In this document: piece by piece, positions 39,019 through 61,000 of the stretch
How the letters are laid out: every line of letters starts with the position of its first letter
How positions within the stretch are numbered: position 1 is the stretch's first letter
The notes under the pieces: model-generated
Database searches by the model: none
What the model was told of the DNA's origin: nothing
What the model saw: only the letters and a program-made list of their open reading frames with translations
Position numbers and translations under genes: made by a program
NCBI RefSeq assembly: GCF_055900595.2
Contig: NZ_CM148325.1
Strand: one strand, 5' to 3'
Length of the DNA: 64,000 nt

Positions 39019-40412
39019 CGCAATTTATCTCCTATTAAAAATTCCAGCGCAGCATCAAGACGAATATGCGGCAGCGGTTTGTCGACATCCATCACCTGCG
39101 GACGAAACGCCTCAAACTGGAAGCCTTGCTTATCCCAGAACGCCTGACCAGGCAAACGTGCGGGAACTTCGCCAGGATAAACAGTGAGCGGTGCGCCATC
39201 ACTGAGTCGATTACCGCGCAGCGCCGGGATTTTCTCACCGTTAACATCAATAATGCCGCTGGTGGTCGCCTGAACTGACGCCAGCCCCAGGCAGTCCATA
39301 CTGATCCCTTCGAACGCCGCATTTTGCCAGGCATCCTGAATCAGTTGTTGCAGTAATGAAACCATATTGGCGTGCTGATCGATGGTCACATGATCCGCTT
39401 TAGTGGCAGCAAACAATAGCTTATCGATAACCGGCGAAAACAAGCGCCGGAACAAGGTACGCTGCCCGTAGTGGAAGCTTTGCATCAGCTGCGTCAGCGC
39501 CAGACGCATATCATTGAATGCTTGTGGTCCACTGTTGAGAGGTTGCAGGCAATCCACCAGCACAATCTGCCGATCAAAGCGCAGAAAATGATTTTTATAG
39601 AACCCCTTCACCACTTTCTCGCAGTAATAATTAAATCGTTCGCGCAGCATTCCGGCATTGGTGTGCTTGTCGGCCTGTGCAAGTTTTGATTCGCCCCAGG
39701 CATCGACATCCGGCCACGGGAAGAATTGCAACGCGGGCGCACCTGCCATATACCCCGGCAAGACAAAACGCCCAGGCTGAATAAAGTGCAGCCCCTGCTG
39801 TTTACAGTGGTGGAGATAATCGGTCCATGCGGCAGCAATGTCTGCAAGACGGTTTTCGTCGGCAGGTGCTAGTGGGTCCAGCCCTTCGCACATCATTCGC
39901 CATTTTGCCGACCATTCGCCGCGCTGACCATTGAGTAAGCCCGTCATCTGGCGCGACCAGCTTAAATAGTCCTGCGCCAACATCGGCAAGTCGAGTAACC
40001 ATTCGCCGGGATAATCCACTATCTCCAGATACAACGTGGAAGTGTCTTTGAAGTGACGCAACAGCGAATCGTTCGATTTATAGCGTAGCGCCAGGCGAAT
40101 CTCACTGACGCCGCGTGTTGGGGTCGGCCAGGCGGGAGGATCGCCATATAACTGCGCCAGCCCTTCATCGTAGGTGAAGCGTGGAATGCCAAAGTCACGC
40201 TGGGGAATGCGTTTTACGCCCAGCAGGCGCTCTTCACGCACCGCACTTAATAGCGGCAAGCGTGCTCCGGCATGAATATTGAGCAACTGATTGACCATCG
40301 CAGTGATAAACGCGGTTTTGCCGCTGCGGCTAAGTCCGGTTACAGCGAGGCGCAGATGTCTGTCGACACCCCGATTCACCAGCGCATTAAGTTCATTTTT
40401 AAGTCGCTTCAT
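39015..40412 (-). CDS. ycjX: YcjX, P-loop NTPase
   Basis: Track ORF 39015..40499; start moved to [12 protein letters not shown] (465 aa); Walker A GLSRSGKT. Confidence 0.85.
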
Positions 40413-40556
40413 TGCTGTCCTGTGGACCAGAAAAAAATCATTCGTAAGGATATGAATGTGGGGGCCATGCCCTTGATTATCAACTGCCCGTGTTGTCATC
40501 TTGAGGCGAACTCCATAAGATGTGCAGCATTCACGTTCGGACGGAGTTCCTGACCT

Positions 40557-41555
40557 ATGTCCCCTACTATTTATGATATTGCCAGGGTTGCCGGCGTATC
40601 AAAATCCACCGTATCACGCGTGCTGAATAAGCAAACCAATATCTCCCCGGAAGCGCGCGAAAAAGTGTTACGGGCCATTGAAGAATTACAGTATCAGCCA
40701 AATAAACTGGCCCGCGCGCTGACCTCTTCGGGCTTTGATGCCATTATGGTGATTTCTACCCGCTCGACCAAAACTACGGCGGGTAACCCGTTTTTCTCCG
40801 AAGTTTTGCATGCCATTACCGCCAAAGCGGAAGATGAGGGTTTCGACGTGATATTGCAGACGTCGCACAACCCAGCTGAAGACTTACAAAAATGTGAAAG
40901 CAAAATTAAGCAGAAAATGATTAAAGGCATTATTATGCTAAGTTCGCCAGCAGATGAGTCTTTTTTCGCCCAACTCGATAAATACGATATTCCGGTGGTA
41001 GTAATTGGCAAAGTTGAAGGTGAATATGCCCATGTTTATTCTGTCGATACCGATAATTTTGGCGACAGTATTGCGCTGACCGATGCATTAATTGAAAGTG
41101 GACATAAAAATATTGCCTGCCTACATGCTCCGCTTGATGTCCATGTTTCGGTTGACCGCGTTAATGGTTATAAGCAAAGTCTGGAAGATCATAATATTGC
41201 AGTGCGCAATGAGTGGATCGTTGACGGCGGTTATACCCATGAGACAGCACTGCAAGCCGCGCGGGAATTATTAAGCCAGTCACCGTTGCCTGAGGCAGTG
41301 TTTGCTACTGACAGCCTGAAATTAATGAGCATTTATCGTGCGGCGGCAGAGAAAAACATTGCTATTCCGCAGCAGTTAGCGGTGGTGGGTTATAGTAATG
41401 AAACGCTGTCGTTTATATTAACGCCTGCACCGGGCGGCATCGATGTTCCGACGCAGGAGTTAGGTCAACAAAGCTGCGAGTTATTATTCCGCTTAATTGC
41501 CGGAAAACCGTCACCACAAAATATTACCGTTGCCACGCATATGTCGTTGAAATAA
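40557..41555 (+). CDS. ycjW: LacI-family regulator YcjW
   Basis: 332-aa ORF with N-terminal HTH ([21 protein letters not shown]). Confidence 0.9.
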
Positions 41556-41569
41556 ATGCCAGCTACGTT

Positions 41570-41653
41570 GCCTGAATGCCGGATGCGATGCTGGCGCATC
41601 TTATCCGGCCTACATTTATAAACCGGATAAAGTACTCGCGCCGCATCCGGCAA
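41570..41653. repeat. REP/BIME element (two REP units)
   Basis: GCCGGATGCGATGCTGGCGCATCTTATCCGGCCTAC and CCGGATAAAGTACTCGCGCCGCATCCGGC between ycjW and ompG. Confidence 0.6.
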
Positions 41654-41665
41654 TTTAGCACATTA

Positions 41666-42571
41666 TCAGAACGCGTAATTCACACCGACACCTGCATAAT
41701 GGAATTTATCGCTGTCGCCTTCATCGTGATCCTGCCACTCAAACGCGTATTCCAGCGAAACGGAAAGACCATTCTGGAAATCATAACCGTAAAACAAACC
41801 AAGACGGTTAAAATCATGGCCTTCACGTTCGATATCATCCTGCCAGTCCCAGTTACTCCAGCGATCCAACCCAATGCGCGTATACGGTGTTACCGAGTGA
41901 TTGCCGAGCGTCAGCGGTAAATAGGCGCGAATTTCTTGCGTGGAGAATTCACCGTTATTGCGGCTGTCGTCCATATTGAAGCCGCGCTCGAGATAATAGT
42001 TCACTCGCAAGGCAACCGTTTCGTTGAAGGTATATTGCAGACCCGTTTCCGTTTCGACACGGGTATCAGCATAACCGGTTGTATTCAGATCGTTGGCAAA
42101 TTTATACATCGACAGCCATCCGTTGAAACGTAAATCGTCAGTCAGTTTCACATCCCAGTCTGGCGCGATTTTCCAGCGCTGCATATTTGCCGTGTCTTTA
42201 CCCGGTTCATCAACATAGTGATAACCATAGTTACGGAAACCACCGGTCAGGCCGAAACTGAAATCATCGCTTTCGAGAAACTGATAATGCACTTCGAGTT
42301 CCGGGCGATCAAACCAGTTTCCACGTTTACCCGCGCTATAATCTACCGGCCCTTCCTGGTAATAAGCCAGCGATATTCTCCACGGCCCATTGGCAGCATT
42401 AAAATAGACGGAAGGCTCCGCCAGCCCGTCCATATCTTCGCCATAACCCTCGACGTTTTCTATTTCGTACATCGCGCCGATATTAAAGTGCCAGTCGTTT
42501 TTTTCCTCAGCCTGTGCGCAGGCCATTCCCGCACACATCACCAGTGCGGTACAGGGTAATAACTTTTTCAT
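41666..42571 (-). CDS. ompG: Outer membrane porin OmpG
   Basis: 301-aa ORF with signal peptide and C-terminal aromatic residue (…VNYAF). Confidence 0.9.
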   Translation of the reverse strand: MKKLLPCTALVMCAGMACAQAEEKNDWHFNIGAMYEIENVEGYGEDMDGLAEPSVYFNAANGPWRISLAYYQEGPVDYSAGKRGNWFDRPELEVHYQFLESDDFSFGLTGGFRNYGYHYVDEPGKDTANMQRWKIAPDWDVKLTDDLRFNGWLSMYKFANDLNTTGYADTRVETETGLQYTFNETVALRVNYYLERGFNMDDSRNNGEFSTQEIRAYLPLTLGNHSVTPYTRIGLDRWSNWDWQDDIEREGHDFNRLGLFYGYDFQNGLSVSLEYAFEWQDHDEGDSDKFHYAGVGVNYAF

Positions 42572-42616
42572 TATTGTTCCTTGTATTATCCTGGGGGAAT
42601 GCCTTCCCCCCTGTAT

Positions 42617-43699
42617 TTAGCGAATTGCTATTTCCGTTTCTGCATCAAAGAAATGACATTTGGTCATATCAAAATGAATAGTGATATTTTCTCCTGCATG
42701 ATAATCATTTAACGCACCAGCACGGACCACTAACTCGTGCCCCCCAACCGTGGTGTAGAGCATAAATTCCGCACCGGTTAATTCTGCCACGCTAATTTTG
42801 GCGGAAATGTTATTTTCCTCTTGCGCATCCGGATGAATATCTTCCGGGCGTATTCCCATCACGATGGGCTTATGCAAGCTTTCCTGCGTTTTCAGAACCG
42901 CTAATTTATCTTCGGGAATGGTTAATTTAAGCGTTTCCGTAACGAATTTATCGCCATCGATCGTGCCGCGAATAAAATTCATTGCTGGTGACCCAATAAA
43001 GCCGGCAACAAACATATTCGCCGGTTGGTTATAGACCGTTTTCGGCGCACCGACCTGCTGAACAATCCCATCCTTCATAATGACAATCCGCGTCGCCATG
43101 GTCATCGCTTCGGTCTGATCGTGGGTCACGTAGATCATGGTGGTGTTCAGTTTCTGATGCAGCTTGCTGATTTCCGCGCGCATTTGTACGCGCAGCTTGG
43201 CATCCAGGTTAGAGAGCGGTTCATCCATTAAAAACACGCCCGCTTCGCGCACAATCGCCCGTCCAAGCGCCACACGCTGGCGTTGCCCGCCGGAAAGCGC
43301 ACCCGGCTTGCGTTTCAGGTACTCACGCAGGCCAAGGATTTGCGCCGCCCAGTTAACCCGCTCATCTATCACCTCTTTGGCGATTTTTTGCATCTTCAGG
43401 CCAAACGCCATGTTGTCGTAGACCGTCATATGCGGATACAGCGCGTAGTTCTGGAACACCATCGCAATATTGCGCGCTTTGGCCGGAACGTCGTTCATTC
43501 GTTTGCCGTCGATCAACAGATCGCCGCCGCTAATCTCCTCAAGCCCGGCAATCATACGCAGCGTCGTCGATTTACCACAGCCCGACGGGCCGACAAATAC
43601 AATGAACTCTTTATCGGCAATTTCCAGGTTGAAGTCCTTCACCACATGCACCTGGTTATCGTAGATTTTTTGAATATGTTGTAACGAAAGCTGTGCCAT
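42617..43699 (-). CDS. ycjV: ABC transporter ATP-binding protein YcjV (MalK-like), full length
   Basis: 360-aa ORF with Walker A GPSGCGKST, signature LSGGQ and Walker B FLMDEPLS; intact here, whereas I recall a truncated pseudogene in K-12. Confidence 0.85.
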   Translation of the reverse strand: MAQLSLQHIQKIYDNQVHVVKDFNLEIADKEFIVFVGPSGCGKSTTLRMIAGLEEISGGDLLIDGKRMNDVPAKARNIAMVFQNYALYPHMTVYDNMAFGLKMQKIAKEVIDERVNWAAQILGLREYLKRKPGALSGGQRQRVALGRAIVREAGVFLMDEPLSNLDAKLRVQMRAEISKLHQKLNTTMIYVTHDQTEAMTMATRIVIMKDGIVQQVGAPKTVYNQPANMFVAGFIGSPAMNFIRGTIDGDKFVTETLKLTIPEDKLAVLKTQESLHKPIVMGIRPEDIHPDAQEENNISAKISVAELTGAEFMLYTTVGGHELVVRAGALNDYHAGENITIHFDMTKCHFFDAETEIAIR

Positions 43700-43712
43700 G
43701 TTGATTCCTTTG

Positions 43713-44372
43713 CTATACGTTTTGCCAGAAGGCCGATAACCGCGGCCAGGTCAGAGATTCCGTTGAGGGCAGCAACAGTTGCGCCCCGGTTAAGCTCGTG
43801 CCGATCCCCACCGAGCGCATACCGCTGGCGTTAATGGCGTCAATACCCGCCTGCGCATCTTCAATGCCAATGCAGGCCTGTGGAGGCACGCCCAGCCCTG
43901 CACAGGCGGCGAGAAAGATTTCCGGGTCCGGTTTCGAGTGTTTAAGTTGGGAAGCGTCCGCGCAGAAGGTGAAAAACTCGCGCAGCTCCAGCGCCGCTAA
44001 AATTGTTGGGGCATTCAGGGAGACGGAGGCCAGCCCTACCGGGATGCCTTGCGCCCGAAGATCTGCCAGCAAAGGCCGAATTCCCGGCAGAACAGCGTTA
44101 ACCGTCAGTTCGCGCAGTGAGTGGACGTAGAGCAGATTTTTGCGATACGCCAGTTGCGCCCGCTCTTGCACGTTAAAGTCGCCCTCTTTGCCCCCGTGTT
44201 GCAGAATGCGTCGCAGGGACTCATCGCGGCTGATCCCTTTTAACGTCTCGTTAAATTGCACATCGATGCCGATGCCGATTTCGGCAGCAATCTGCTGCCA
44301 TGCCTGGAAGTGCAGATGTGCGGTGTCGGTGATCACGCCATCCAGATCGAAAATTACCCCTTGTAGTTTCAT
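43713..44372 (-). CDS. ycjU: Beta-phosphoglucomutase
   Basis: 219-aa ORF with HAD motif I ([12 protein letters not shown]). Confidence 0.9.
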
Positions 44373-44388
44373 TCATCCTCTTGATGCG

Positions 44389-44402
44389 TGGTAGCGGTCC
44401 CA
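44389..44402. promoter_or_regulatory. Putative LacI-family (YcjW) operator, copy 2
   Basis: Minus strand TGGGACCGCTACCA, identical to the 14-mer upstream of ycjM; inside the ycjT 3' end, 17 to 30 nt upstream of the ycjU ATG. Confidence 0.45.
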
Positions 44403-46267
44403 TTGAAGGGCAAAATAAAATCACCCAAACAGAAAACAGACTCTTCAGTCACGGAAATAAGCTGACCGTTCAACCGCAGTGAAACGGGCGCAGAAGTTCG
44501 AATCGCAATACGCTGCGCGTCGAGAGTGACCTGTAATTCGCAGCCCTGCCAGAACAGAGGGAAAGACAACTGTTGCCACTGCTCAGGTAACGCCGGATTG
44601 AGAAGTAATTCGCCGTCGCGCACGCTGACTCCGGCAAAACCCTGAATCGCGCCCAGCCAGATAGCGCCAGTTGCGGCAGCGTGGATACCGTCATCACAGC
44701 TATGCGGATCAGCACCGAGATCGATTTCACTCCCCTCGCGCCAGAACGGGTAACTCTGCGCAAGCAAGCCACAACGCGCGGCAACAATGCCGTGGATCGC
44801 TTTACTCAATGACGAGTCGTGAATGGTGCGCGGTTCATAAAATTGCAGATTGGCGAGACAAGAGGCCGCTGAAAATTGTTCCGGTAGCATGTAATTGAGC
44901 ATCACTACATCGGCCTGCTTGAGGATCTGCATCTCGTTCACTTCTGCGCGTGAATAATCCAGCAGAATGGTTTGCTTCCCGGCCGCCGCTTTGTATTTCG
45001 CCAGATCTATCGCCGGTTTCGCCATAAACGAATCATCCTGCGGCAAAACGCCGTCGGGCTGAATTTCTGGCATCCACAGCTCTTTGAGGAACATGTCGGC
45101 ACGATGAATAAACGCGTCGTCGCTACAGCAAAACTGGCGAGCAATATTCAGCGCCTGTTGGACGTTGTAGCAGGCCATATAACTGGTGTATGCGTTATTA
45201 TTAACGTGTTCGGTATATTCGTCTGGCCCAATAACATCATGAATTTCCAGGCGGTCGTTAACCCTTACCGCACGGCTAATCCAGAACTTTGCGGTCTCCA
45301 GCAGTAGCGCCATGCCTTCGTGAGCGATGAAGCTTTCATCTCCCGTTACCTGCCAGTATTGAATAACCGCCCAGGCGATATCGGCAACCAGATGATGTTC
45401 TGCCTGCGCTGAGGCCACTTTTTGCCGCAGCCCGGTACGAATGTTAATGGCGGCAAATTCCGGCGTTTCTTCTTCGCCGCTACGTGCGCTCTCCCACGGA
45501 AACAGCGCGCCCTGCCAGCCATTGCGTCGCGCTTTCTCCTGCGCCCCTGGTAAGTTGTGCCAGCGATAGCGCAGCAAACTCCGGGCAATCGTCGGTTCGC
45601 TAAACAGATGGAACGGCAGCATGAACACTTCCGTATCCCAGAAAACATGGCCTTTGTAGCCTTCCCCGGTTAAGGCTTTTGCCGCAATGCTGCTACGCTC
45701 GTCGTGGGCGGGCGTCATAATACGCAAATGATAAAGCGCATAGTCTAACGCCCGCTGATCGTGCGTATCGCAACTCTTTACCGTGATACGACGTTTCTGC
45801 CACCATTGCTGCCAGTTTTCTGTCGATGCTGCAAGAAGTTGGTCATAACTCTGTTGTGTAGACATTTCGAGCTGGCGAAGCGACCCACTGCCCCACTCGT
45901 CTAAAGCGGCTTGTCGGTCGTCCCGCCAGTCAATCCACACCCGCTTTTGCAGGGTCAGTGTTTCACCTGTGCGAAGTTGCGTGCTGGTATGTTGCAGCAA
46001 ACGGCGCTCTTTTGCGGTATAGCACTGCTGAACGTCACCATCCGCCTGACAGTGACAACTGATGGCCACATCACTGCGCCCATCCTGGGTGGTGTAGATC
46101 CCCTGCATCAAATGCTGACCAAACACCCGCACCTGGGTTTCGTCAAGATGCTGGCGACCGTGGTTGGTTTGCGTGGCGTTAATGCCTGTTGAGATCAGCA
46201 CTGATGCCTCGGCGTCCAGCGGGGTAATACTGATTTCCAGCGCGATCAACGGCAGTTGATCTGTCGA

Positions 46268-46978
46268 AATAAATATCCTCCGGCATAGCCGGAGGTTTTT
46301 CAAATGCGCCTGTAAGGCTCTGTTACCAGCCGCGCCCTAACAGGCGCATACGATCTGACATTTGCATTCAACTTCGTTACTTACGGCCCGTAAACGGGCT
46401 GCCCGGATATGGAATCGATAACTGCTCCCCCATTTTATCCTCTTCAAGCTGGTGCTTTATGTAGTCCTGTATCTTCGCCGTGTTCTTACCCACCGTATCG
46501 ACATAGTACCCTCGGCACCAGAACTCCCTGTTTCTGTATTTGAATTTCAAATCCCCAAACTGCTCGTAAAGCATCAGACTGCTTTTCCCTTTCAGATATC
46601 CCATAAAGCCGGATACGCTCATTTTGGGTGGGATTTCCACAAGCATATGGATATGATCTGCGCAGCACTCTGCTTCCAGAATCCGTACGCTTTTCCACTC
46701 ACACAGCTTTCTCAAAATACTGCCTATCGCCCTACGCTTCTCTCCGTAAAACGCCAGTCTTCGGTATTTCGGCGCAAAAACTATGTGATATTTACAGTTC
46801 CAGCGGGTGTGCGCTAAGCTCTTTTCGTCCCCCATTGGGACCCCCTTTTGATTTCTTGTTTGACACTTGCAGTTGCCAGACCGCAAGGTGTTTTAACAAA
46901 TCAAAAGGGGTTTTAATAACTGGCTCAAAGCTGAAAGCTTTCCGGAACCCCCAGCCTAGCTGGGGGTTTTCTGTGCAC
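46268..46978 (-). mobile_element. IS200-type insertion sequence (IS200/IS605 family), about 711 bp
   Basis: Boundaries inferred from where ycjT homology stops and resumes (within a few nt). Upstream of tnpA: palindrome CCCCCAGC-ctag-GCTGGGGG (46943..46961) and a stem-loop overlapping the tnpA RBS. Downstream end: hairpin CCTCCGGC-ata-GCCGGAGG (46277..46295). Confidence 0.85.
46377..46835 (-). CDS. tnpA: IS200 transposase TnpA (HUH Y1)
   Basis: Track ORF 46377..46886; start moved to MGDEKSLAHTRWNCKYHIVFAPKYRR (152 aa); HUH motif (ADHIHML) and C-terminal Tyr region (RGYYVDTVG). Confidence 0.9.
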   Translation of the reverse strand: MGDEKSLAHTRWNCKYHIVFAPKYRRLAFYGEKRRAIGSILRKLCEWKSVRILEAECCADHIHMLVEIPPKMSVSGFMGYLKGKSSLMLYEQFGDLKFKYRNREFWCRGYYVDTVGKNTAKIQDYIKHQLEEDKMGEQLSIPYPGSPFTGRK

Positions 46979-47343
46979 AACAAAGCGACGACTTGCAAGG
47001 GTGAACCCTGCGCCGTCGCTCGTGCGCCAGATAACACTGCGGCGTAATTCTCCACTGGCAAAGTCAAGCTCACGCTGCCACGCTTCGCGGGATAACGAAA
47101 AAATCTCGCCGTTTAGGGTAATTTCCATTCCCACCACGTCTGGCAGATTCACCAGTTCGTTGATTTCACCTTTCCCGGCTCGATGATAAAGCCCTGCCAG
47201 ATACATGCCGCGCGTCTGCCGCGTGTAATCTTCTTCATGGCTGGCACGAAGCCCAAGATAGCCGTTTCCCTGCGCCATTAATGAGGCATATTTATTCAGG
47301 GTATGCTGGCTGAAATGGGGTTCCGTTAATGTTACTGGCCTGG

Positions 47344-48399
47344 TCATAATTCCACACGCGTCCCTGTTTCTGCGGATTGATACAGCGCCGCCACCAGTTG
47401 CTGGATGATGTACCCTTGCTCGGCGTCGGCAATCATCACTGGCTTGCCCTGTACGTGATTGATAAAGGCTTCCATGCTGCGCAAATGACGGTTGTCGTCG
47501 GCCAGTTCCCGTTGCATCAACGTCATTAATTCACCGTTGTTGTCGGTATAGATATGCGCCGGAAATAGCGTGGCTCCCGCTTTATCGCCGCAAAAGCTGA
47601 CGTTCATAATCGACTGTTCGCGGATGTTGAGTGCAAATGATGTCTCCAGCCAAAGAATGCCGCCGTTATGAAATTCAATGGTGCCAAACAGCGAATCTTC
47701 GACGCTGTAGGTTGCCGGGTCCCACTCGCCAAATTGACCACAGCTCTTTTGCGGGCCGATCTTTTGAAAGCTATGCGCATTCACGCTTTTCACTGCCGGA
47801 AAGCCCAGCACATACATCGCGGCATCCAGCATATGAATGCCGATGTCGATCAGCGGGCCACCGCCCTGCAGTTCTTTATTGGTAAAGACACCCCAACCGG
47901 GAACGCCGCAGCGACGCAGGGCGCGAGCGGTCGTCACGTAAATCTGACCCAAAACGCCGTTGGTCACCTGTTCACGCAGTTGTTGCGTATCAAGGGCAAA
48001 ACGATGGTGAAAGTCGTAGGCCAGCACCTTGCCCTGTTTGCGCGCGGTATCGCACATTTCCCGCGCCTGTTCTGGCGTCATGGCGGGCGGTTTCTCGCAC
48101 ATCACATGGCAGCCTGCCTCCAGCGCCATCAGGGTATGCTCGTAATGAAAACGGTTAGGTGAACAGACGCTTATCACGTCAGGTTTTACCGCCAGCAGCA
48201 TGGCCTGCGGATCGTCCCACACGGATGCGTTCCCGTATTTCTCTGCCAGCGCCTGCGCCTGGGAAAGGCGGCTGTCACAGACAGCCACCAGTTCCAGATC
48301 GTTGCGGGTGCAGTAGTACGAAGCATGAACCTTATCCGCCACCTGGCCCGCGCCTATTATCGCGACCCGCAGCGGAGAGCTTGTCATTGCACTTTTCAC
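47344..48399 (-). CDS. ycjS: Gfo/Idh/MocA-family oxidoreductase
   Basis: 351-aa ORF with Rossmann motif (VAIIGAGQVADKVH); stop overlaps ycjT start. Confidence 0.9.
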   Translation of the reverse strand: MKSAMTSSPLRVAIIGAGQVADKVHASYYCTRNDLELVAVCDSRLSQAQALAEKYGNASVWDDPQAMLLAVKPDVISVCSPNRFHYEHTLMALEAGCHVMCEKPPAMTPEQAREMCDTARKQGKVLAYDFHHRFALDTQQLREQVTNGVLGQIYVTTARALRRCGVPGWGVFTNKELQGGGPLIDIGIHMLDAAMYVLGFPAVKSVNAHSFQKIGPQKSCGQFGEWDPATYSVEDSLFGTIEFHNGGILWLETSFALNIREQSIMNVSFCGDKAGATLFPAHIYTDNNGELMTLMQRELADDNRHLRSMEAFINHVQGKPVMIADAEQGYIIQQLVAALYQSAETGTRVEL

Positions 48400-48408
48400 A
48401 AAGACCTC

Positions 48409-49197
48409 TTAGCAGGTGCGCAACCAGGCCAAAGAATCACGGTACGCCTGAGCAGGATCTTCTGCCCGGATACGCCCTTCATACACCACATAGCCCTGAT
48501 AGTTATCGGCGCGCAACTGTTCAAACAGCGCGTGGAAATCGAGGGTGCCGCTGCCCGGCTGATAGCGATGGTTATCGGCAATATGCACATGACCAAGCAG
48601 GTCACGGTTGTCATGCAGCGCCTGCGCCAGGTTATCCTCTTCGATGTTCATGTGATAGAAATCGCCGATAATCTGCACATGTTTAAGGTTGTTTTCGACG
48701 ATGTAACGACGAGCATCGGCGAGCGTGTTGATCATGTGGTCCTGATAGCGGTTTAGCGGTTCGAGATACACCACCGTTCCGGTACGCGCGGCTACCTTCT
48801 CCAGGAAACGCAGGGAATCGCTCACCATTTGACGATCGCCGTCCAGGCTGCGCGGCGAGGTCATCGGCGGTAAGCGAAAGGTAAACATGCCCCACGCTGC
48901 TGGAACGACAATACCTTTGCCGCCCACTTCCGCCAGCGCCTCAAGAATGCGCTCGATCTGCTTTAAACCATTAAGACGACGCTCTTCGATAAAGTCGCCA
49001 ATCCAGCCGTCATAGCCGCCGCAGGCGGTGGTCACCGGTAAACCGGTTTCTTTGATCGCTGCTTTGACTTCTTCGAGATTGTTGACCAGCAGTTTGCCGT
49101 CAATCTCAAAACCATCAAAACCCATCTCTTTGATATAACGAAATTTCTCCAGAATATTTTCCGGAAAGAAGGCCTGATTCTGTGTGCCGATTTTCAT
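48409..49197 (-). CDS. ycjR: Sugar phosphate isomerase/epimerase (xylose isomerase-like TIM barrel)
   Basis: 262-aa ORF MKIGTQNQAFFPENILEKFRYIKEMGFDGFEI... Confidence 0.9.
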   Translation of the reverse strand: MKIGTQNQAFFPENILEKFRYIKEMGFDGFEIDGKLLVNNLEEVKAAIKETGLPVTTACGGYDGWIGDFIEERRLNGLKQIERILEALAEVGGKGIVVPAAWGMFTFRLPPMTSPRSLDGDRQMVSDSLRFLEKVAARTGTVVYLEPLNRYQDHMINTLADARRYIVENNLKHVQIIGDFYHMNIEEDNLAQALHDNRDLLGHVHIADNHRYQPGSGTLDFHALFEQLRADNYQGYVVYEGRIRAEDPAQAYRDSLAWLRTC

Positions 49198-49213
49198 TTT
49201 TCCGTCCTTAGAA

Positions 49214-50267
49214 TTAAAAAGTTACGCCCATTTTGATGCTCTGTTCCGGATGCTGGTCGACATACTGCATGTAGCTTTCCGGGCTGTTAGCAAAGGTCAC
49301 CACCGGGTCGATTAAATCTTCACAATTGAGATAACCGTTCATCAGCAGTTCCCAGCAGGTTTCTTCAATACGCTTGCGGCTCCAGCGCGGATAATCCGGG
49401 TTCGGTTCACTGCACGCACGAGAGAAGACAATTTTGGCGTTGTTGAAATGCGCTTCACGTCCGAGGTTAAAACCTTCAGCAAACGGTTTGGCAAACGCAA
49501 CATAGGAGATGGTGCCGCCATAAGCCAGGCCGCGCAGTGCCGATTGCAGCGCGTCGGCGTAGCCGCTGGTTTCGATAATCACATCGGCACCCTGCTTGCC
49601 GGTCAGCGTTTTAATCTCTTTGCCTACATCCGTGCCAATGGGGTTAAGGCAGAAATCCGCCCCGTGGCGACGGGCAATATCACAGCGATGAGCGATAGGA
49701 TCGACACCAATCACCACCGACGCGCCAGCGCGTTTTGCCAGTTGAATGGCAATTTGACCAATCGCGCCAAGCCCTACCACCACCACAAAATCGCCCACGC
49801 GCACGTTGGCATCGCGCACGCCGCTCATGGCAAACTGCGCCGGGTCGTAACAGACGGCGTTTTTCCACGAGCTACCTTGCGGCATTTTGCGCAGTTTGTA
49901 GTTATTCACCGCGTTAATGATGACCGTTTCGGAAAGCGGGCCGTAGCCGCATACGCTGTCGCCCACCGCGTAGTCGGTAACCTCGCTGCCGCACTCGATA
50001 ATGTCGCCAACCACCATGTTGCCAAGCTGGAACTTGCCAAACTCAATGCCGCGCGGCGCATCTGCCGGACGGGGGGGTGAACATCTGCCATTCGCCATTA
50101 AAGTCTTCATTAATAAACGGGCTGGCGGCGCGGAAATCGACCACTTCCGTCCCGTGTTTCGGCGCGCCGAACCGCACGCGGATCTTCACTTCATTGGCTG
50201 AAATCGCCCTGTCTTCATACTCCACCAACGCGGCAACGCGCGGTGCTGTGGCTACTAACTTTTTCAT
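49214..50267 (-). pseudogene. ycjQ: ycjQ (zinc-type alcohol dehydrogenase) with +1 frameshift in a C7 run
   Basis: N-terminal 74-aa ORF (50043..50267, MKKLVATAPRVAALVEY...QMFTPPSGRCAARH*) and C-terminal 298-aa ORF (49214..50110) overlap in different frames around G7 at 50071..50077 (C7 on the coding strand). Confidence 0.7.
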
Positions 50268-50297
50268 GTAAAACTCCTTGTCAAGAAACTGGCCGCT

Positions 50298-51140
50298 TTA
50301 GCCCTTCACGCCACCGGCGGTCAAACCACTCTTAATAAAACGTTCCGAAAGTGCATACATAATCACCACCGGCAATGCGGTCACCAGCGAGGCCGCCATC
50401 ATTCGGCCCCAGATGTAATCAGGGGTACTGAACAGCGCGTTCAGGCCTACCGGTAAAGTGAAATTGCTGGCGCTGGAGAGGAAAATCGAGGCAAACAGAT
50501 AGTCGTTCCACGCCACCATAAAGCAGTAGACGAACACGGATATCAGGCCCGACATCGCCAGGGGCACTGTGATACGGAAGATGATTTGCAGACGGTTGAG
50601 GCCATCCATCATCGCCGCTTCTTCGATTTCATCAGGGATGGTGTCGAAGTAGCTTTTCAGCATAAACACGGCGGTGGGCAGGGTTTGCGTCACCATGGTG
50701 ATGATCAGCGCCATCTCGGTGTCGTAAATGCCAAGCGCAGTGATGATTTTGAACAGCGGCACCACCAGCAAAATGCCGGAGAACATGTACACCGTGTAAA
50801 AGCTGGCGTTGATGGTCATTCGCCCTTTAAAGCGCAGGCGGGAAAGCGCGTAAGCCCCGAGAATGCCGAGAAATACTGCTATCACGGATGAAACTACCGA
50901 CACCACCAGGCTGTTACGGAAATAATCGACAAACGGGAAAATCACCGGGTTAAAAATGTCGACGTAATGCTCCAGCGTCCACTGCTGTGGCAGCAGCGTA
51001 GGATGCAGCGAGATCGCCTCTTTCGCGCTTTTGAACGAGGTCATCAGCATCACAAAAAAGGGAAACAGCGTGATGATGAGAAACAGCGCAAGCCCGCAGT
51101 AAAAACCGATGCGACTGAGTGTGCGTTTATTTGTTGCCAT
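50298..51140 (-). CDS. ycjP: ABC transporter permease
   Basis: 280-aa polytopic membrane ORF; overlaps ycjO stop. Confidence 0.9.
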   Translation of the reverse strand: MATNKRTLSRIGFYCGLALFLIITLFPFFVMLMTSFKSAKEAISLHPTLLPQQWTLEHYVDIFNPVIFPFVDYFRNSLVVSVVSSVIAVFLGILGAYALSRLRFKGRMTINASFYTVYMFSGILLVVPLFKIITALGIYDTEMALIITMVTQTLPTAVFMLKSYFDTIPDEIEEAAMMDGLNRLQIIFRITVPLAMSGLISVFVYCFMVAWNDYLFASIFLSSASNFTLPVGLNALFSTPDYIWGRMMAASLVTALPVVIMYALSERFIKSGLTAGGVKG

Positions 51141-52008
51141 TGAGGTTCACCCGTTTTCTGGTCAGCAGAATGACAGCGAAAATAATGATGAAGAGCACCA
51201 CCGAGATCGCCGCCGCTTTCCCTAAGTCATTAAAGGCAAAGGCGGTTTTGTAGAGATAGACGCCGAGAATATCGACCTTGGTCGTCAGCAAATAAACGTC
51301 CGCGAACATGTAGAACATCCAGATGGTACGCAGAGTCACCACCGTCGCCAGGACCGGCATAATCGCGGGCAGCGTGACGATGCGAAACCGTTGCCAGGCA
51401 TTCGCGCCGTCCATCTCTGCCGCTTCGTACAACGATTTATCAATGGTCTGCAAAATCGCCAGAAACGAGATAAAGGCATACGGGAAGTAGCGCCAGATGG
51501 CGAACAGCACCACCAGCACAAAACTACTGCCCGGGTTATCGAACCACAGCGGCGCCTGCTCATAGAGATGCAGAAGATCGACGCCGAGGTAGTTCACAAT
51601 GCCGTAGCCGTTGTTGAACATGTATTTCCAGGCGAACACCAGTGAAATGGATGGCGTTACGTAGGAGAGGATCACCAACGAACGCGCGGTCTTGCGCAGG
51701 CGAAACTCGCGGTTGAAAAACATCGCCACTGCCAGCCCGAGCACGGTGCTGCCCGCCACCACCAGCGCGGTATACCAGACCGTCATCCACAGCGAGTGCC
51801 AGAAGCCGGGATCGGAGAGAATACGCACATAGTTGCTCACCCCAACAAACGTTGACTCGATGTTGGGATTAAGCGGCAGACGTAAAAAACTGATTTCGAT
51901 ATTCGACACCATCGGCCACGCCACCAGACCGCCCAGCAGTAATAAGCTGGGCGCGAGAAGCAACAGCGCAAAGGGCATATCGGAACGACCTGAAAAAAGC
52001 CTGTTCAT
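51127..52008 (-). CDS. ycjO: ABC transporter permease
   Basis: 293-aa polytopic membrane ORF. Confidence 0.9.
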   Translation of the reverse strand: MNRLFSGRSDMPFALLLLAPSLLLLGGLVAWPMVSNIEISFLRLPLNPNIESTFVGVSNYVRILSDPGFWHSLWMTVWYTALVVAGSTVLGLAVAMFFNREFRLRKTARSLVILSYVTPSISLVFAWKYMFNNGYGIVNYLGVDLLHLYEQAPLWFDNPGSSFVLVVLFAIWRYFPYAFISFLAILQTIDKSLYEAAEMDGANAWQRFRIVTLPAIMPVLATVVTLRTIWMFYMFADVYLLTTKVDILGVYLYKTAFAFNDLGKAAAISVVLFIIIFAVILLTRKRVNLNGNK

Positions 52009-52028
52009 TGCGGATTCCTGTTCTGGGA

Positions 52029-53321
52029 TTAGTGCTGTTCGATCAGTTCATCCAGCTTTTTCTGGCTCGCTTGCAGCGTGGTTGAGAGATCGGCTTTCCC
52101 CACGGTGACGTTATGCACCATTGAACTCACCACACCAGAGCCCGTGACATCGCCCATGCGGGTAAAGTTTTTGTCCCCTACCGCACCAAAGACCTGAATG
52201 TTTGGCAGTTCGCTAATCAACTGATTCGGCAAGTCTCCCAGCGCCTTAATCACGTCGTTATCTTTCCAGGTGGCAGTAGTCACAACCGCTTTGTTCACCG
52301 GCAGCGCCGCGCCTGGCGACATCATCACCCAGTCGGCAATGTTGTCTGCCTGCTCCATAAAGGTGACAAATTTTTCTGCCGCTTCCGTCTCTTCGCTTTT
52401 TTGCCCGGCGGTAATGGTCAGCGAGGTCAACATGCCGTAGACCGCCGAGTTTTTCTCGGTTGGCACCACGAAACCGACATTTTTCGGGTCACCTTCTTTA
52501 ATCACAGCCGGAAGGATATAGGTGGAGTAAATCGCCATCGGCGCAGTGCCGTTCATAAAGGCGTCTTTCACTTCCATAATGTCGTTAGAGCCCGGCATGG
52601 TGTTGGCAGCAAGGTCGCGGTAATAGGTCAGCGCCTGCATCATCTCCGGCGTATCAAGGGTGATTTTGCCTTCGGCGTTAAAAACGTTGGCCTGATTGGA
52701 TAACGCAAACTGAGAGAACGATTGTTCCGTCAGTACGCTTTCTGCCGTCGGCAGTGCAATACCGTATTTTTTATTCGCCGGATCGTTCAGTTTCTGTGCG
52801 ACATCCAGCAACTGTTGCCAGTTTTTCGGCTCATCCAGCCCGGCTTTTGCCAGCACATCTTTGCGATACCAGATACCGCCAATCCATGCGCTGACAGGAA
52901 CACCGGTCCAGGCGCTACCATCTTCGGTGCGCACAATCCGCAGAACGCCGTCATAAAACGCGCCTTCACCGACATTACTGATGACCGTAGCAACCGCTTT
53001 GCGATCGATAAGCTGTTCTTTGTCCATCACTTTCGCGTAGTCATGGCTGGTTTCGATCACTTCCGGCAGCGAGCCGCTACGGGAAAGGGTGATGACTTTG
53101 GTGTTATAGGCATCTTCTTCCACCGGCACTTGTTTAACAGTGATGCCTGGGTTTTCTTTTTCAAAACGCGCAATTAACTGACTTATAACCGCCTGGCGTT
53201 CCTGTTCCACCGAAGAATGCATAAACTCGATGGAGACATTCGTTTTATTTTCTTCTTTACAACCTGAAATCAGGGCGCAGGAAACCAGTGCTGATAACAG
53301 CACGATTTTAGATTTAATCAT
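52029..53321 (-). CDS. ycjN: ABC transporter periplasmic sugar-binding protein
   Basis: 430-aa ORF with lipoprotein-type signal (LLSALVSCALISGC). Confidence 0.9.
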   Translation of the reverse strand: MIKSKIVLLSALVSCALISGCKEENKTNVSIEFMHSSVEQERQAVISQLIARFEKENPGITVKQVPVEEDAYNTKVITLSRSGSLPEVIETSHDYAKVMDKEQLIDRKAVATVISNVGEGAFYDGVLRIVRTEDGSAWTGVPVSAWIGGIWYRKDVLAKAGLDEPKNWQQLLDVAQKLNDPANKKYGIALPTAESVLTEQSFSQFALSNQANVFNAEGKITLDTPEMMQALTYYRDLAANTMPGSNDIMEVKDAFMNGTAPMAIYSTYILPAVIKEGDPKNVGFVVPTEKNSAVYGMLTSLTITAGQKSEETEAAEKFVTFMEQADNIADWVMMSPGAALPVNKAVVTTATWKDNDVIKALGDLPNQLISELPNIQVFGAVGDKNFTRMGDVTGSGVVSSMVHNVTVGKADLSTTLQASQKKLDELIEQH

Positions 53322-53334
53322 GAGATGTTCCTTT

Positions 53335-55014
53335 TTATTTAATCCACATAACCTGCCAGGGGCGCAGCGTTATTTCATTACCCACTATATCAACTTCACT
53401 AATCAGATCCCGACCGTGCAGGTCAGTAATATTTATATGCTGAATATTTTCACTGACATTAAACAATCCTGTCAGACAATTACCATCCGCGTTGCTTCTT
53501 TGAATACGCATTACGGATGAATTAACCGTATCGATGGTAAAATCATTATCTGGATGAAACTCGTTATGACTGCGACGAATTTTAATTAGTCGCGACAATT
53601 CATGATATACCGCGTGCCTTAACGTCGCTTTATTGTTCAGTTCGGTCGTGATCTCTTCGCTGGTGTATTTTTTACGGTTAATCGCACGGTTATATCCCAG
53701 TTTTTCGACACCTGCGTAATCATTACGCGAGCCCAGAATACTTTGAATATATATCGCTGGCACACCGGGGAAAATTAACAAAATCGCATGGGCAAGGATA
53801 AACCTGGCGCAACGTTCTTCATCGCTACTCTCGCGGCGGCTTAACGCATCCATATAAGTGACATTCATTTCATACGGACTGCGCGTACCATCGGGATTAT
53901 TTTTCCAGTTTACTAATGCCCCTTCCTGCTGTAACGCCTCGACTAGCGCTAATATCTCGCTTTCAGGCAACAAGCCTCGCAGTGGGTTAAGCCCAATACC
54001 ATCATGAGACGCGAGGAAGTTAAACCAGGTGGTTTTACTGGAAGGCAACGTCAGACTTTGCGCCCACTGGCACAGCGCCTCGACGTTCTGTTTTTGCACC
54101 GCATGTAACACCAGCGGCGGCAGTGAGAACTGGTACACCATATGCGCTTCGTCATCACCGTTTCCAAAGTAAGCAATGTTGTCTTTGTGAGGAACATTGG
54201 TCTCGGTAATGATCACAGTACCTGGTGCTACGTCATCAATAATCGACCGTAACAGCTTGATAATCAGATGTGTTTTTTCCAGATGGATGCAGCTTGTTCC
54301 CGGCTCTTTCCACATAAAGCCAACGGCATCCAGACGGACATACTCTGCGCCTTTTTCCAGGTAACACAACAGCACATCTACCATCGCCAGTAATACATCT
54401 GGGCTGCGATAATTGAGGTCAATTTGATCGTCGCTAAATGTCGTCCATAAATGGCGCGTTGAATTATCGTTCATTTGAAACGACGTTAATAACGGTAACG
54501 CACGCGGGCGAGTGACGGCGCTGAGATCGGCTTGCGGGTCAACGGCAATAAAAAAATCTTCAAAACCTGGCTGCTGTTGTAAATAGTTTTTAAACCATTC
54601 ACTTTTAGCCGACATGTGGTTGCAGACTAAATCAAACATCAAATGGCTGCATTCACCGAGCTGCTGAATATCCTGCCACTCCCCTGCTTCACTGGCGACC
54701 TGATGATAATCAATTACCGAAAATCCATCATCAGATGTCCATGGGTAAAATGGCAACAAATGGACATGTGAAAAAATGCTTTGCAGCCAGTGATGGTAAA
54801 ACTGATTAAATGTGGGTAGTGGTTTTAAATCATTACTGTGAAATTGATCGGCATAGGTAATTAACACGACATCACTTTCATCCCAGTGTTTTTTACGTCG
54901 CTGTGTAATTAATCTTTTCGCACTCTCAAGACGCGTTACAAGTTTCTGTAAATGAGTCGCGGTAAATGTTCCACCGTAGATTTCGTCCAGGTAATCCGTA
55001 ATTTTCTGTTTCAT
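53335..55014 (-). CDS. ycjM: GH13 sucrose-phosphorylase-like enzyme (glucosylglycerate phosphorylase)
   Basis: Track ORF 53335..55041; start moved to MKQKITDYLDEIYGG (559 aa). Confidence 0.9.
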   Translation of the reverse strand: MKQKITDYLDEIYGGTFTATHLQKLVTRLESAKRLITQRRKKHWDESDVVLITYADQFHSNDLKPLPTFNQFYHHWLQSIFSHVHLLPFYPWTSDDGFSVIDYHQVASEAGEWQDIQQLGECSHLMFDLVCNHMSAKSEWFKNYLQQQPGFEDFFIAVDPQADLSAVTRPRALPLLTSFQMNDNSTRHLWTTFSDDQIDLNYRSPDVLLAMVDVLLCYLEKGAEYVRLDAVGFMWKEPGTSCIHLEKTHLIIKLLRSIIDDVAPGTVIITETNVPHKDNIAYFGNGDDEAHMVYQFSLPPLVLHAVQKQNVEALCQWAQSLTLPSSKTTWFNFLASHDGIGLNPLRGLLPESEILALVEALQQEGALVNWKNNPDGTRSPYEMNVTYMDALSRRESSDEERCARFILAHAILLIFPGVPAIYIQSILGSRNDYAGVEKLGYNRAINRKKYTSEEITTELNNKATLRHAVYHELSRLIKIRRSHNEFHPDNDFTIDTVNSSVMRIQRSNADGNCLTGLFNVSENIQHINITDLHGRDLISEVDIVGNEITLRPWQVMWIK

Positions 55015-55026
55015 GTTGCCTTTCCG

Positions 55027-55040
55027 TGGTAGCGGTCCCA
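55027..55040. promoter_or_regulatory. Putative LacI-family (YcjW) operator, copy 1
   Basis: Minus strand TGGGACCGCTACCA, imperfect palindrome centred on CG, 13 to 26 nt upstream of the ycjM ATG; identical copy at 44389..44402. Confidence 0.45.
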
Positions 55041-55185
55041 TGAAGCGAGAGACTACTCCGCAGAAAATAAACTGTCAATTGAGCACAAGGGTTTTAGTCA
55101 CGCAGGAAATCATTTTTTACCAGGGAAAAAGCGTATTTGTGAGCTGACGCAAATAATCTATGGGGATGTAAATAAGGTGTGACAG

Positions 55186-55210
55186 AAAAAGTAAACGGCG
55201 CATAAGCGCC
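55186..55210 (-). terminator. Putative terminator after pspE
   Basis: Minus-strand hairpin GGCGC-ttat-GCGCC followed by GTTTACTTTTT. Confidence 0.4.
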
Positions 55211-55227
55211 GCTTAGGGTGGATTCTT

Positions 55228-55542
55228 TTAACCTTTGACCTTCGGCATTGCGATGTCTTTCAGGCCGCCAGCGTTCTCAACGTGGGTATATCCCATCTCG
55301 CTAAGGATCTCTTTTGCCTGCCCTGACTGGCGTCCGGCATTGCAATACACTTTCACGGTGTCGTTTTTATCCGGAACGGCGGTGGCAATGCGCTCTTTCA
55401 CTTCCTTCAGGGGAATATTGATGGCTCCCTGAACGTGCTCTTGCTGATACTGCTCTGGAACACGAACATCGATCCAGTGTTCAGCGGCGAAAACGGGCAG
55501 TGAAAACACCAGTGTCAGAGCAAGTAAGCCTTTTTTAAACAT
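55228..55542 (-). CDS. pspE: Thiosulfate sulfurtransferase PspE (rhodanese)
   Basis: 104-aa ORF with signal peptide and active-site loop CNAGRQS. Confidence 0.9.
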   Translation of the reverse strand: MFKKGLLALTLVFSLPVFAAEHWIDVRVPEQYQQEHVQGAINIPLKEVKERIATAVPDKNDTVKVYCNAGRQSGQAKEILSEMGYTHVENAGGLKDIAMPKVKG

Positions 55543-55616
55543 GTAAGCGTCCTTCTATGGATGAAAATTGCCATCCATAATACGCCTTAGCTTTAACAAT
55601 TTTTGCGAAACTCCCC

Positions 55617-55838
55617 TCACCTTTTATAACGCTGCGCCAGCTTATTGGCAGCCCGACTTAATAGCGGTTCCAGCGCCACAGCCAGCAACATTTTCAGCGG
55701 TCGGCGAGCAACTGATTTTATCGCCCAACCAGCCACACCCGCCGGGCCATAGCGCAGTGCGGTAAGAAGTACCAGCTTGCCTGCTAATTTGAAACCAGGC
55801 TTCACCTTTTGCCCGGCCTGTTGCCAGCGAGTATTCAT
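55617..55838 (-). CDS. pspD: Phage shock protein D
   Basis: Track ORF 55617..55850; start moved to [10 protein letters not shown] (73 aa). Confidence 0.85.
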
Positions 55839-55846
55839 AACTTTCC

Positions 55847-56206
55847 TCACAGTTGACGGAAACGGCTACGTAACGTGAAAGTATCGGAAGTGACATAACG
55901 TTCCATCTCGCGTAAACGCGTTTCACTGGCCGCCAGTTCACGATCGACTTCATCTAACAATTCGCTGCTGGAAGGCAGTTGTTCACCAAACGCCATGTTG
56001 TCAGGCATTGGATCAAGCGCAAATGACAAAATGATGTAAGCAACCAGGGTAAACAGCGCCAGACCGAAGAAAATCGACAGCACCACCAGGATACGCGCCA
56101 GTTTTACCGGTACATCAAAATAGTTGGCAATCCCGGCGCAGACGCCGCGTACCATGCCCCGCTGTGGAATACGCCATAATTTTTTATTGAGATTAATGCC
56201 CGCCAT
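55847..56206 (-). CDS. pspC: Phage shock protein C
   Basis: 119-aa ORF with single TM helix; start overlaps pspB stop. Confidence 0.9.
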
Positions 56207-58296: not shown

Positions 58297-58317
58297 CGAA
58301 GTTGGGCAATACAACTT

Positions 58318-58395
58318 GCCGGATGCGGCGTGAACGCCTTATCCGGCATACATAATCAATACGTCGTTTGCAGGCCTGATAAGCGCAGCGCATCA
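58318..58395. repeat. REP element pair
   Basis: GCCGGATGCGGCGTGAACGCCTTATCCGGCATAC and AGGCCTGATAAGCGCAGCGCATCAG between pspF and puuE. Confidence 0.55.
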
Positions 58396-58415
58396 GACAT
58401 TATTGCGTTGGGCTA

Positions 58416-59681: not shown

Positions 59682-59718
59682 GTTTCACACCTTTTGACTC
59701 TTCACTGTTAATCGGAAA

Positions 59719-60999: not shown

Positions 61000-61000
61000 T

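Follow-up and report, generated by a model that had tools for sequence, protein, structure and literature searches.

The ycjMNOPQRSTUV-ompG cluster, which serves carbohydrate utilisation under the regulator YcjW, is in this strain of Escherichia cryptic clade I probably part-way through a stepwise and most likely neutral pseudogenisation, that is, a case of ordinary gene decay. Two synonymous substitutions in codons 64-66 of ycjQ (ACT CCG CGT to ACC CCC CGT) made a run of six cytosines (C6), which then slipped to C7, frameshifting ycjQ and becoming fixed in the lineage of the window (the whole stretch of 64,000 nucleotides that was analysed). An IS200 element later entered ycjT after codon 123, in the gene's own orientation, in a nested sub-lineage. 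In relatives, an A-to-C substitution gave C9, followed by C10 and a frame-restoring C8, and other strains gained a nonsense mutation in ycjV (K179*) and an A6-to-A5 frameshift in ycjM. We infer that the guloside-to-glucoside branch and kojibiose phosphorolysis have been lost, that ycjM, ycjU, ompG and the genes of the transporter (ycjNOP and ycjV) can still be translated, and that selection has been relaxed in the window's lineage. The cluster would provide a worked example in which a synonymous change creates a homopolymer hazard, one gene is lost, and the operon decays by IS insertion, nonsense mutation and further slippage.

The cluster was identified by synteny. It lies on the minus strand in the order pspE-ycjMNOPQRSTUV-ompG-ycjW, as in K-12, with pspE upstream and ycjW downstream, and orthology to K-12 b1309-b1319 was borne out by colinearity and by nucleotide identities of 90-97% per gene, compared with 97-98% in the flanks. 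Gene lengths equalled those of K-12 throughout, except for ycjQ (one base longer), ycjT (interrupted by the IS) and ycjV, which is one base shorter in K-12; the window has lesions in ycjQ and ycjT but not in ycjV, whereas only ycjV is broken in K-12. Eight genes (ycjM, ycjN, ycjO, ycjP, ycjR, ycjS, ycjU and ompG) were intact, as were ycjW and both YcjW operators. The genes ycjP, ycjO and ycjN, spanning 50298..53321, were annotated jointly as ABC permeases and binding protein. The two operators are one identical 14-mer in the window and in K-12 alike; the motif was derived in this analysis and not taken from PMC6599011, and its positions agree with the ChIP peaks that PMC6599011 reports in front of ycjM and in the ycjT-ycjU interval. 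In K-12, YcjM is a glucosylglycerate phosphorylase, YcjQ, YcjR and YcjS interconvert gulosides and glucosides, YcjT is a kojibiose phosphorylase and YcjU a beta-phosphoglucomutase (PMC11543891, PMC6599011); the predicted activities of the window genes were assigned by orthology to these K-12 enzymes (PMC11543891). Coordinates of all features are given in the table.

Table. Features of the ycj cluster and its surroundings, in window coordinates
Feature	Position	Strand	Description
ycjW	40557..41555	+	Intact 332-aa LacI-type repressor of the cluster; from the ORF list and synteny with annotated relatives and K-12
ompG	41666..42571	-	Monomeric porin, intact, 301 aa; 94.8% nucleotide identity to K-12, free of gaps and internal stops
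ycjV	42617..43699	-	ABC transporter ATPase, intact, 360 aa; G6 run, G5 in K-12
ycjU/pgmB	43713..44372	-	beta-Phosphoglucomutase, intact, 219 aa
ycjT	44369-47347	-	Kojibiose phosphorylase, split by IS200 after codon 123 of 755
ycjT 3' fragment	44369..46267	-	Codons 124-755, kojibiose phosphorylase catalytic and C-terminal domains
Second YcjW operator	44389-44402	-	TGGGACCGCTACCA; within ycjT at its 3' end, 17 nt before the ATG of ycjU
IS200 insertion	46268..46978	-	709-711 bp, same orientation as ycjT; from alignment to E200086
IS200 right-end hairpin	46277..46295	-	Terminator-like on both strands, z = -3.06
IS200 tnpA	46377..46835	-	Y1 (HUH) transposase, 152 aa; PF01797 Y1_Tnp, E=7.9e-37
IS200 left end and tnpA 5'UTR	46845..46968	-	Rfam RF01405 STnc490 (art200 region), 146.4 bits
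IS200 left-end terminator hairpin	46946-46968	-	10-bp GC-rich stem, IS nt 11-33
ycjT 5' fragment	46979..47347	-	Codons 1-123; Pfam Glyco_hydro_65N
ycjS	47344..48399	-	D-Glucoside 3-dehydrogenase, intact; E152Q allele marks the lineage
ycjR	48409..49197	-	3-Dehydro-D-guloside 4-epimerase, intact; from alignment to K-12
ycjQ pseudogene	49214..50267	-	D-Guloside 3-dehydrogenase; 1054 nt; frame shifted by +1 and closed by a stop at codon 75
Poly-C tract	50071..50077	-	C7 as read in ycjQ, G7 on the plus strand; codons 64-66, slippage hotspot
ycjP	50298-51140	-	ABC permease/binding-protein set, intact
ycjO	51127-52008	-	ABC permease/binding-protein set, intact
ycjN	52029-53321	-	ABC permease/binding-protein set, intact
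ycjM	53335..55014	-	Glucosylglycerate phosphorylase, intact, 559 aa
First YcjW operator	55027-55040	-	TGGGACCGCTACCA; upstream of ycjM

The lesion in ycjQ is a single extra C within CACCCCCCCG, where K-12 has CACTCCGCG, so that the gene measures 1054 nt in the window and 1053 in K-12. With one C removed, the frame is restored to 350 aa at 99% identity to K-12 YcjQ, and the identical allele had been flagged as 'frameshifted' by PGAP in E200086, 100117 and 100248. Together with the early stop, these results confirmed the frameshift that had been proposed in the sequence-only reading, in which the hypermutable, reversible homopolymer underlying it had been overlooked. The tract reads CACTCCGC in K-12, CACCCCGC in RMDEC465 and EC42405, and CACCCCCC in 2013C-4282 and five ST485 genomes; the states observed across relatives were CTCCGC, C4, C6, C7, C8, C9 and C10, with C6 and C7 mixed among eight ST485 genomes. 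The window's exact YcjS allele was sampled from seven distinct places (25 contigs), and the tract was C7 or C9 in every one of them. In the public collection, whose 'blocks' are a proxy for genome counts only, the exact YcjS protein was found in 465 blocks, the 74-aa C7 fragment in 149 and the C9 fragment in 38; the C10 N-terminal fragment had no record there. The in-frame YcjQ predicted for C8 (T64P) was found in nine contigs, one of which also carried the ycjM frameshift and ended inside the IS. To judge from these tract lengths, ycjQ contains a hypermutable and reversible homopolymer, and the distribution of the broken allele indicates a frameshift that is inherited and fixed in the window's lineage. 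A strain in which the ycjQ frame had been restored by slippage was still broken in ycjT and ycjM. An apparent C6 revertant (L025) was also observed; its assembly is a single contig, presumably from long reads, and a homopolymer error may explain it. We rejected programmed frameshifting or transcriptional slippage at C7 as an alternative, since no known signal was present and the C6 relatives encode a normal protein.

The second lesion was established by comparison with the uninterrupted ycjT of E200086, relative to which the window contains 711 extra bases, the exact ends being blurred by a TT dinucleotide. The 3' fragment is 99.9% identical to that gene and retains Pfam Glyco_hydro_65m and 65C domains on a 644-aa ORF, while the 5' fragment reads on into the IS to form a 140-aa ORF (46925-47347), of which the exact product is on record in 31 blocks of that collection. 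Copies of tnpA annotated elsewhere as IS200/IS605 match the insert at 99-99.9% identity, and 15-17 other IS200 copies are present per ST485 genome. The match to RF01405 is full-length (1-124) and well above the gathering score of 56. Like IS200 of the IS200/IS605 family in Salmonella and E. coli, which measures about 707 bp, the element has a single Y1 transposase and ends without terminal inverted repeats; its 5'UTR carries the stem-loop and antisense art200/STnc490, and a hairpin stands at its right end. Its left-end hairpin agrees with the terminator described at nt 12-34 (PMC4513863). Nothing material differs from known IS200 except the new insertion site at ycjT codon 123. The IS200 in ycjT that had been recognised from the letters of the window was thus substantiated by the extra bases, the Y1_Tnp domain and the STnc490 match. 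A supposed SNP at 46270 was rejected, as this position belongs to the last bases of the IS and there is no substitution.

The IS junction had no match among 5426 complete E. coli genomes of RefSeq, which at first pointed to a private insertion; searching the larger public collection for the exact proteins overturned this. An IS at the identical site was found in L018, L019, L023-L025, L027 (and 15 similar places), L028, L029 and L033-L035, and was absent from L017 (+15) and L020-L022. The junction was the same base for base in at least three contiguous assemblies, and contigs of draft assemblies broke at the same position. The metagenome contigs L026, L030 and L031 were left out of this tally despite their 140-aa YcjT fragment; they combine window-like with K-12-like sequence in mosaic form, and are probable co-assembly chimeras. 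This distribution indicates that the insertion marks a sub-lineage nested within the ycjQ-frameshift group, and ycjT::IS200 should be usable as a marker of it. The broken frames of ycjQ and ycjT recur in independent assemblies and are phylogenetically coherent, as in inherited pseudogenes.

The genomes nearest to the window are GEMS isolates of ST485, likewise cryptic clade I, available as Illumina plus ONT hybrid assemblies, which are 99.95% identical and colinear over 64 kb; the window is sister to all eight of them. When eight variable sites of the ycj region were polarised with outgroups, six were derived in the window and one in ST485. The window SNPs at 45130 and 47794 are private, being present in none of the compared loci. 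The cluster was wholly intact in five of the eight ST485 sister genomes and in three outgroups of the same haplotype family, and a clade-wide loss was therefore not supported. Beyond the two lesions of the window, K179* in ycjV was found in L022 and the A6-to-A5 frameshift of ycjM in L033, so that four different genes (ycjQ, ycjT, ycjV and ycjM) have been disabled across a lineage with less than 0.1% divergence.

The intact ycjV had been contrasted with a truncated gene in K-12. Both halves of this comparison were correct: the window gene is a full-length MalK-like ABC ATPase with Walker A (GPSGCGKS at 37), signature (LSGGQ at 135), Walker B (VFLMDE at 155) and H-loop (THD at 192) motifs and with the Pfam domains ABC_tran, OB_MalK and TOBE_2, the last two forming the MalK-type C-terminal part, and in K-12 the pseudogenes ycjV (b1318) and ymjB (b4524), 1082 nt combined, result from the loss of one base by slippage (-1, G6 to G5) near nt 955. 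The contrast itself carries no weight. The exact K-12 G5 allele was found in 369 of 4995 complete genomes, the three sampled carriers being K-12-type or laboratory strains, and in about 4500 of the 4995 the match was one base longer, as expected of G6. An intact ycjV thus appears from these counts to be the species norm, with K-12 atypical; being the ancestral state as well, it requires no explanation. In about 8% of complete E. coli genomes ycjQ or ycjV was undetectable. The K-12 lesion resembles that of the window's ycjQ in being a single-base slip in a G:C homopolymer of the same cluster, but it affects another gene, the transporter ATPase, and runs in the opposite direction (-1); the two sets of lesions are evolutionarily unrelated.

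The sequence-only reading had taken the lesions to mean that the pathway was dispensable or counter-selected. Both lesions proved to be real and lineage-specific and are independent of each other, and the cluster does look dispensable in this lineage, but nothing was found that separates counter-selection from neutral decay. The ratio of nonsynonymous to synonymous SNPs in the cluster was 6:4 for the window together with ST485 and 10:5 within the lineage, and 9:10 in the flanking genes, without significant difference, the shallow divergence inflating the ratio everywhere. With nine genes intact in the window, part of the cluster, e.g. glucosylglycerate uptake and phosphorolysis, may remain under selection. 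Equally, selection for loss could account for lesions in four different genes of a single 12-kb cluster.

Such an adaptive loss, in which expression of the cluster is harmful in the niche and its inactivation has been selected repeatedly, is unlikely. The harm might come, for example, from toxic 3-keto-glycoside intermediates, from OmpG-mediated permeability or from mis-regulation of the YcjW regulon, and in its favour are four independent disabling events in four genes of one cluster at so little divergence, one of them fixed in the lineage. The later lesions are, however, rare and scattered and do not resemble early sweeps in parallel; in most genomes ompG, ycjW and the transporter are intact, as is the whole cluster in sister ST485 strains and outgroups. 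The first lesion lies at a mutational hotspot, where recurrence is expected without selection, the ycjQ frame has been restored in some strains, and the SNP ratios of the cluster are indistinguishable from those of its flanks. Very unlikely is a reading of the poly-C tract as a newly arisen phase-variable switch that turns YcjQ reversibly on and off rather than as part of a dead pseudogene. As in the contingency loci of Haemophilus, Neisseria and Campylobacter, a mononucleotide run toggles the frame and occurs in several lengths among close relatives; all states from C6 to C10 were seen in very close relatives, with the in-frame lengths C6 and C8 among them inside sub-lineages that are otherwise frameshifted, and C6 and C7 both occur within ST485. 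Unlike those loci, the ycj tract is a chance product of synonymous changes, is short (7 in the window, at most 10 in relatives), C7 being short by the standards of classical phase variation, and shares its operon with further lesions that are irreversible, the likeness being one of between-strain lengths only, with no sign of heterogeneity within a single strain. The C8 strain keeps ycjT::IS200 and the ycjM frameshift, so that switching ycjQ on restores no pathway, and the C6 state of L025 may be an error. It is improbable that the tract is a contingency locus at birth, switching guloside catabolism in cryptic clade I, or that the lesions in ycjQ, ycjT, ycjV and ycjM record positive selection silencing the YcjW regulon in a widely sampled lineage.

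An origin of either lesion, or of both, in sequencing or assembly error is effectively refuted; the sequence-only reading had itself raised assembly artefacts in both. A one-base difference in a homopolymer is a classic error site and IS elements can be misplaced in assemblies, but the identical C7 allele was present in three hybrid Illumina plus ONT assemblies and in many further, independent ones of varied origin, including the draft multi-contig NCBI assemblies L021, L022, L023 and L029, the MEGAHIT-style ENA contig L027 and the Logan assembly of an SRA run (L035). The distribution of C7 in ST485 also tracks a SNP-defined subclade (55044 G), and the recurrence of the IS junction described above argues likewise; both lesions follow the lineage.

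Kojibiose and guloside phenotypes are expected to differ among cryptic clade I strains, and the annotation of ycjQ in the lineage to alternate between 'gene' and 'pseudogene' with tract length; knowledge of the ycj pathway and of IS200 is unaltered. The IS is predicted to be polar on ycjU-ycjV-ompG because its left-end terminator faces the ycjM promoter, unless there is an internal promoter at the conserved second YcjW operator, close ahead of ycjU. A consensus promoter scan at both operators found nothing, even upstream of ycjM, and is uninformative on an internal ycjU promoter because it also missed the region of the predicted transcription start site reported upstream of ycjM (PMC6599011). 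The Shine-Dalgarno sequence of ycjU was found to be weakened by a SNP at 44381 (AGGAGG to AAGAGG).

The ycj cluster was flanked upstream by pspE, and its gene order through to ycjW was identical to that of K-12 (b1309-b1320). Gene-by-gene alignment gave a nucleotide identity to K-12 of 90-97%, and ycjM, N, O, P, R, S, U and ompG aligned without gaps or internal stops. Two lesions reported by the sequence-only reading, a frameshift in ycjQ and an IS200 in ycjT, were both confirmed. The ycjQ gene comprised 1054 nt instead of the expected 1053, its coding strand reading TTC ACC CCC CCG vs TTC ACT CCG CGT in K-12, with a stop at codon 75; with one C deleted, the product had 350 aa and 99% identity to K-12 YcjQ. 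In ycjT, 711 extra bases (46268-46978) were inserted behind codon 123 of 755, the element measuring 709-711 bp because a TT dinucleotide renders its exact ends ambiguous. It encoded a 152-aa Y1 transposase (PF01797, E=8e-37), matched Rfam STnc490/art200 over the full length (146 bits) and carried a right-end hairpin as well as, at IS nt 11-33, a GC-rich hairpin with a 10-bp stem, which matches the bidirectional left-end terminator published for IS200 at nt 12-34 (PMC4513863). Annotated IS200/IS605 copies of other E. coli were 99-99.9% identical; the element is a canonical IS200. As it shares the orientation of ycjT, the terminator at its left end is turned towards the ycjM promoter. Each ST485 genome, e.g. 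NZ_CM128605.1, contained 15-17 near-identical copies (99.7-99.9%). This number is high for IS200, described as an almost immobile element, and suggests that IS200 was recently active in cryptic clade I.

Features of the ycj region and states of the ycjQ poly-C tract (C6, C7, C9 and C10, tract lengths in the coding strand)
Feature	Position in window	Strand or frame	Basis or carriers
ycjM-N-O-P-Q-R-S-T-U-V-ompG cluster	41666-55014	minus	gene order
ycjW, downstream of cluster	40557-41555	plus	gene order
YcjW operators TGGGACCGCTACCA	55027-55040; 44389-44402		both conserved
tract CACTCCGC		in frame	K-12
tract CACCCCGC		in frame	RMDEC465, EC42405
tract CACCCCCC (C6)		in frame	2013C-4282, five ST485 genomes
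tract CAC7	50071-50077	+1	window, three ST485 genomes, most of window's lineage
tract C9		+1, via A-to-C substitution at 50078	IS-bearing sub-lineage; 74-aa product in 38 blocks
tract C10		+2	L028 (related locus)
tract C6		in frame	L025, IS-bearing single-contig (presumably long-read) assembly; may be error

A C8 state with T64P was predicted to restore the ycjQ frame, and a search for the exact 350-aa protein found it in 9 contigs. The example read, L033 (GCA_050938495.1), terminated within IS200; here the restored ycjQ frame coexisted with a broken ycjM (A6-to-A5 frameshift near codon 246, at about locus position 490, corresponding to window 54278). All three C7 genomes of ST485 also shared the derived SNP 55044 G, indicating that C7 was inherited and not a random error. 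At least four tract-length changes have taken place in a group diverging by <0.1% elsewhere; the tract is a hypermutable slippage hotspot. What disrupts ycjQ is thus a slip in a homopolymer that can be reversed, and no fixed dead end.

The YcjS protein of the window carries a derived E152Q change; the public assembly collection lists exactly this form in 465 blocks, blocks being only a proxy for genome counts. The 25 longest contigs with this allele, representing 7 distinct places, were read, and all 25 showed the +1 state of ycjQ; the N-terminal 74 aa encoded by the C7 allele were listed in 149 blocks. The same ycjT::IS200 insertion was present base for base in four related loci (L018, L019, L024 and L025), contigs of several draft assemblies ended at this insertion point and a 140-aa YcjT-IS fusion ORF occurred in 31 blocks; the junction was found in none of the 5426 RefSeq complete genomes searched. 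The possibility that both lesions were assembly artefacts can thus be set aside, since both recur in further assemblies, which indicate that the lesions are real and inherited. As ycjT was uninterrupted in other carriers of the YcjS allele with +1 ycjQ (L017 with 15 similar places, and L020-L022), the frameshift came first and IS200 later, in a nested sub-lineage. Three ENA metagenome contigs (L026, L030 and L031) had the YcjT-IS200 fusion ORF but changed to ycj sequence of K type within a few hundred bases; they are probably chimeras produced by co-assembly of two E. coli strains, less probably true recombinants.

E200086 and seven other genomes were colinear with the window over 64 kb at ~99.95% identity, IS200 being the sole indel. 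Of the eight, six were isolated from stool in GEMS and are reported as ST485, OND:H45 and cryptic clade I (for two, just 'cryptic'), with Unicycler assemblies of combined Illumina and ONT reads (PMC13064198, PMC13063984); Z0117EC0005, from a dog in South Korea, and AST85, from a human in Japan, come from outside GEMS. With SNPs polarised by three outgroups plus K-12, the window was placed as sister to all eight.

The intact state of ycjV was verified, the gene encoding a MalK-like ABC ATPase of full length (360 aa), in which the motifs Walker A, signature, Walker B and H-loop and the Pfam domains ABC_tran, OB_MalK and TOBE_2 were all present. The sequence-only reading was also right on the K-12 state: ycjV plus ymjB are annotated pseudogenes there, through loss of one base (-1 slip) from a G6 run near nt 955. 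The contrast itself proved uninformative. When a 69-nt K-12 stretch across the G5 site was searched in 5426 complete genomes, 369 of the 4995 having the locus matched exactly, the three sampled matches being K-12-type or laboratory strains, vs ~4500 with the one-base-longer G6 pattern (including strain 536, Nissle, O157:H7 and BL21-type); an intact gene thus appears to be both ancestral and the norm.

YcjQ is a D-guloside 3-dehydrogenase and YcjT a kojibiose phosphorylase (PMC11543891); both activities are likely to have been lost in the window. The IS200 terminators should stop read-through into ycjU-ycjV-ompG, unless the second YcjW operator marks an internal promoter; ChIP peaks were reported at both operator positions (PMC6599011). 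Consensus promoter scans gave no hit at either operator, including the one upstream of ycjM, a region with a predicted transcription start site (PMC6599011), and so do not bear on an internal promoter. A derived SNP at 44381, synonymous in ycjT and also present in IS-bearing relatives whose loci cover the position, replaces AGGAGG by AAGAGG in the Shine-Dalgarno sequence of ycjU and would weaken it.

The pathway had been proposed to be dispensable or counter-selected. Inherited lesions and further hits in relatives, such as K179* in ycjV of the related locus L022, make it look dispensable in this lineage, whereas counter-selection found no support: N:S was 10:5 for cluster SNPs within the lineage and, for the window plus ST485, 6:4 inside the cluster vs 9:10 in the flanks, a difference that leans towards relaxed constraint without significance. 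Comparison among relatives showed the lesions to be shared within the window's lineage, but all cluster genes were intact in the three nearest outgroups and 5/8 ST485 genomes. In ~8% of complete E. coli genomes, ycjQ or ycjV was undetectable. In this lineage the cluster is decaying by a route unrelated to that of K-12, as had been proposed, with a ycjQ slip and ycjT::IS200 vs the ycjV slip. The case is one of ordinary, well-documented pseudogenisation through known elements, with the accidental birth of the hypermutable tract as a small added interest.

Identity to K-12 was 90-95% in the cluster and part of the puu region (40000-56000, 58000-62000) and 97-98% elsewhere in the window; only ~45/4985 complete genomes reached >=95% identity to its ycjQ allele. 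On these figures the haplotype is rare and locally hyper-divergent, possibly through an old recombination import. PuuD (63225-63986) has 254 aa, as in K-12; in 8/8 ST485 genomes, 63233 G>A shortens puuD by three codons. The window (at ~31618-31647) and the ST485 relatives lacked ymjC-ymjD-ycjY-pgrR, the segment that separates mpaA from mppA in K-12. Between tpx and tyrR lies a 680-aa ORF (34188-36230, plus strand) without K-12 counterpart, annotated 'hypothetical protein' in relatives, in which no Pfam domain was found; E407* splits it in Z0117EC0005. The abgR gene (20342-21250) was intact, and its internal stop S186* in E200086 (L003 21262-22170) is another case of strain-level pseudogene turnover in the clade.
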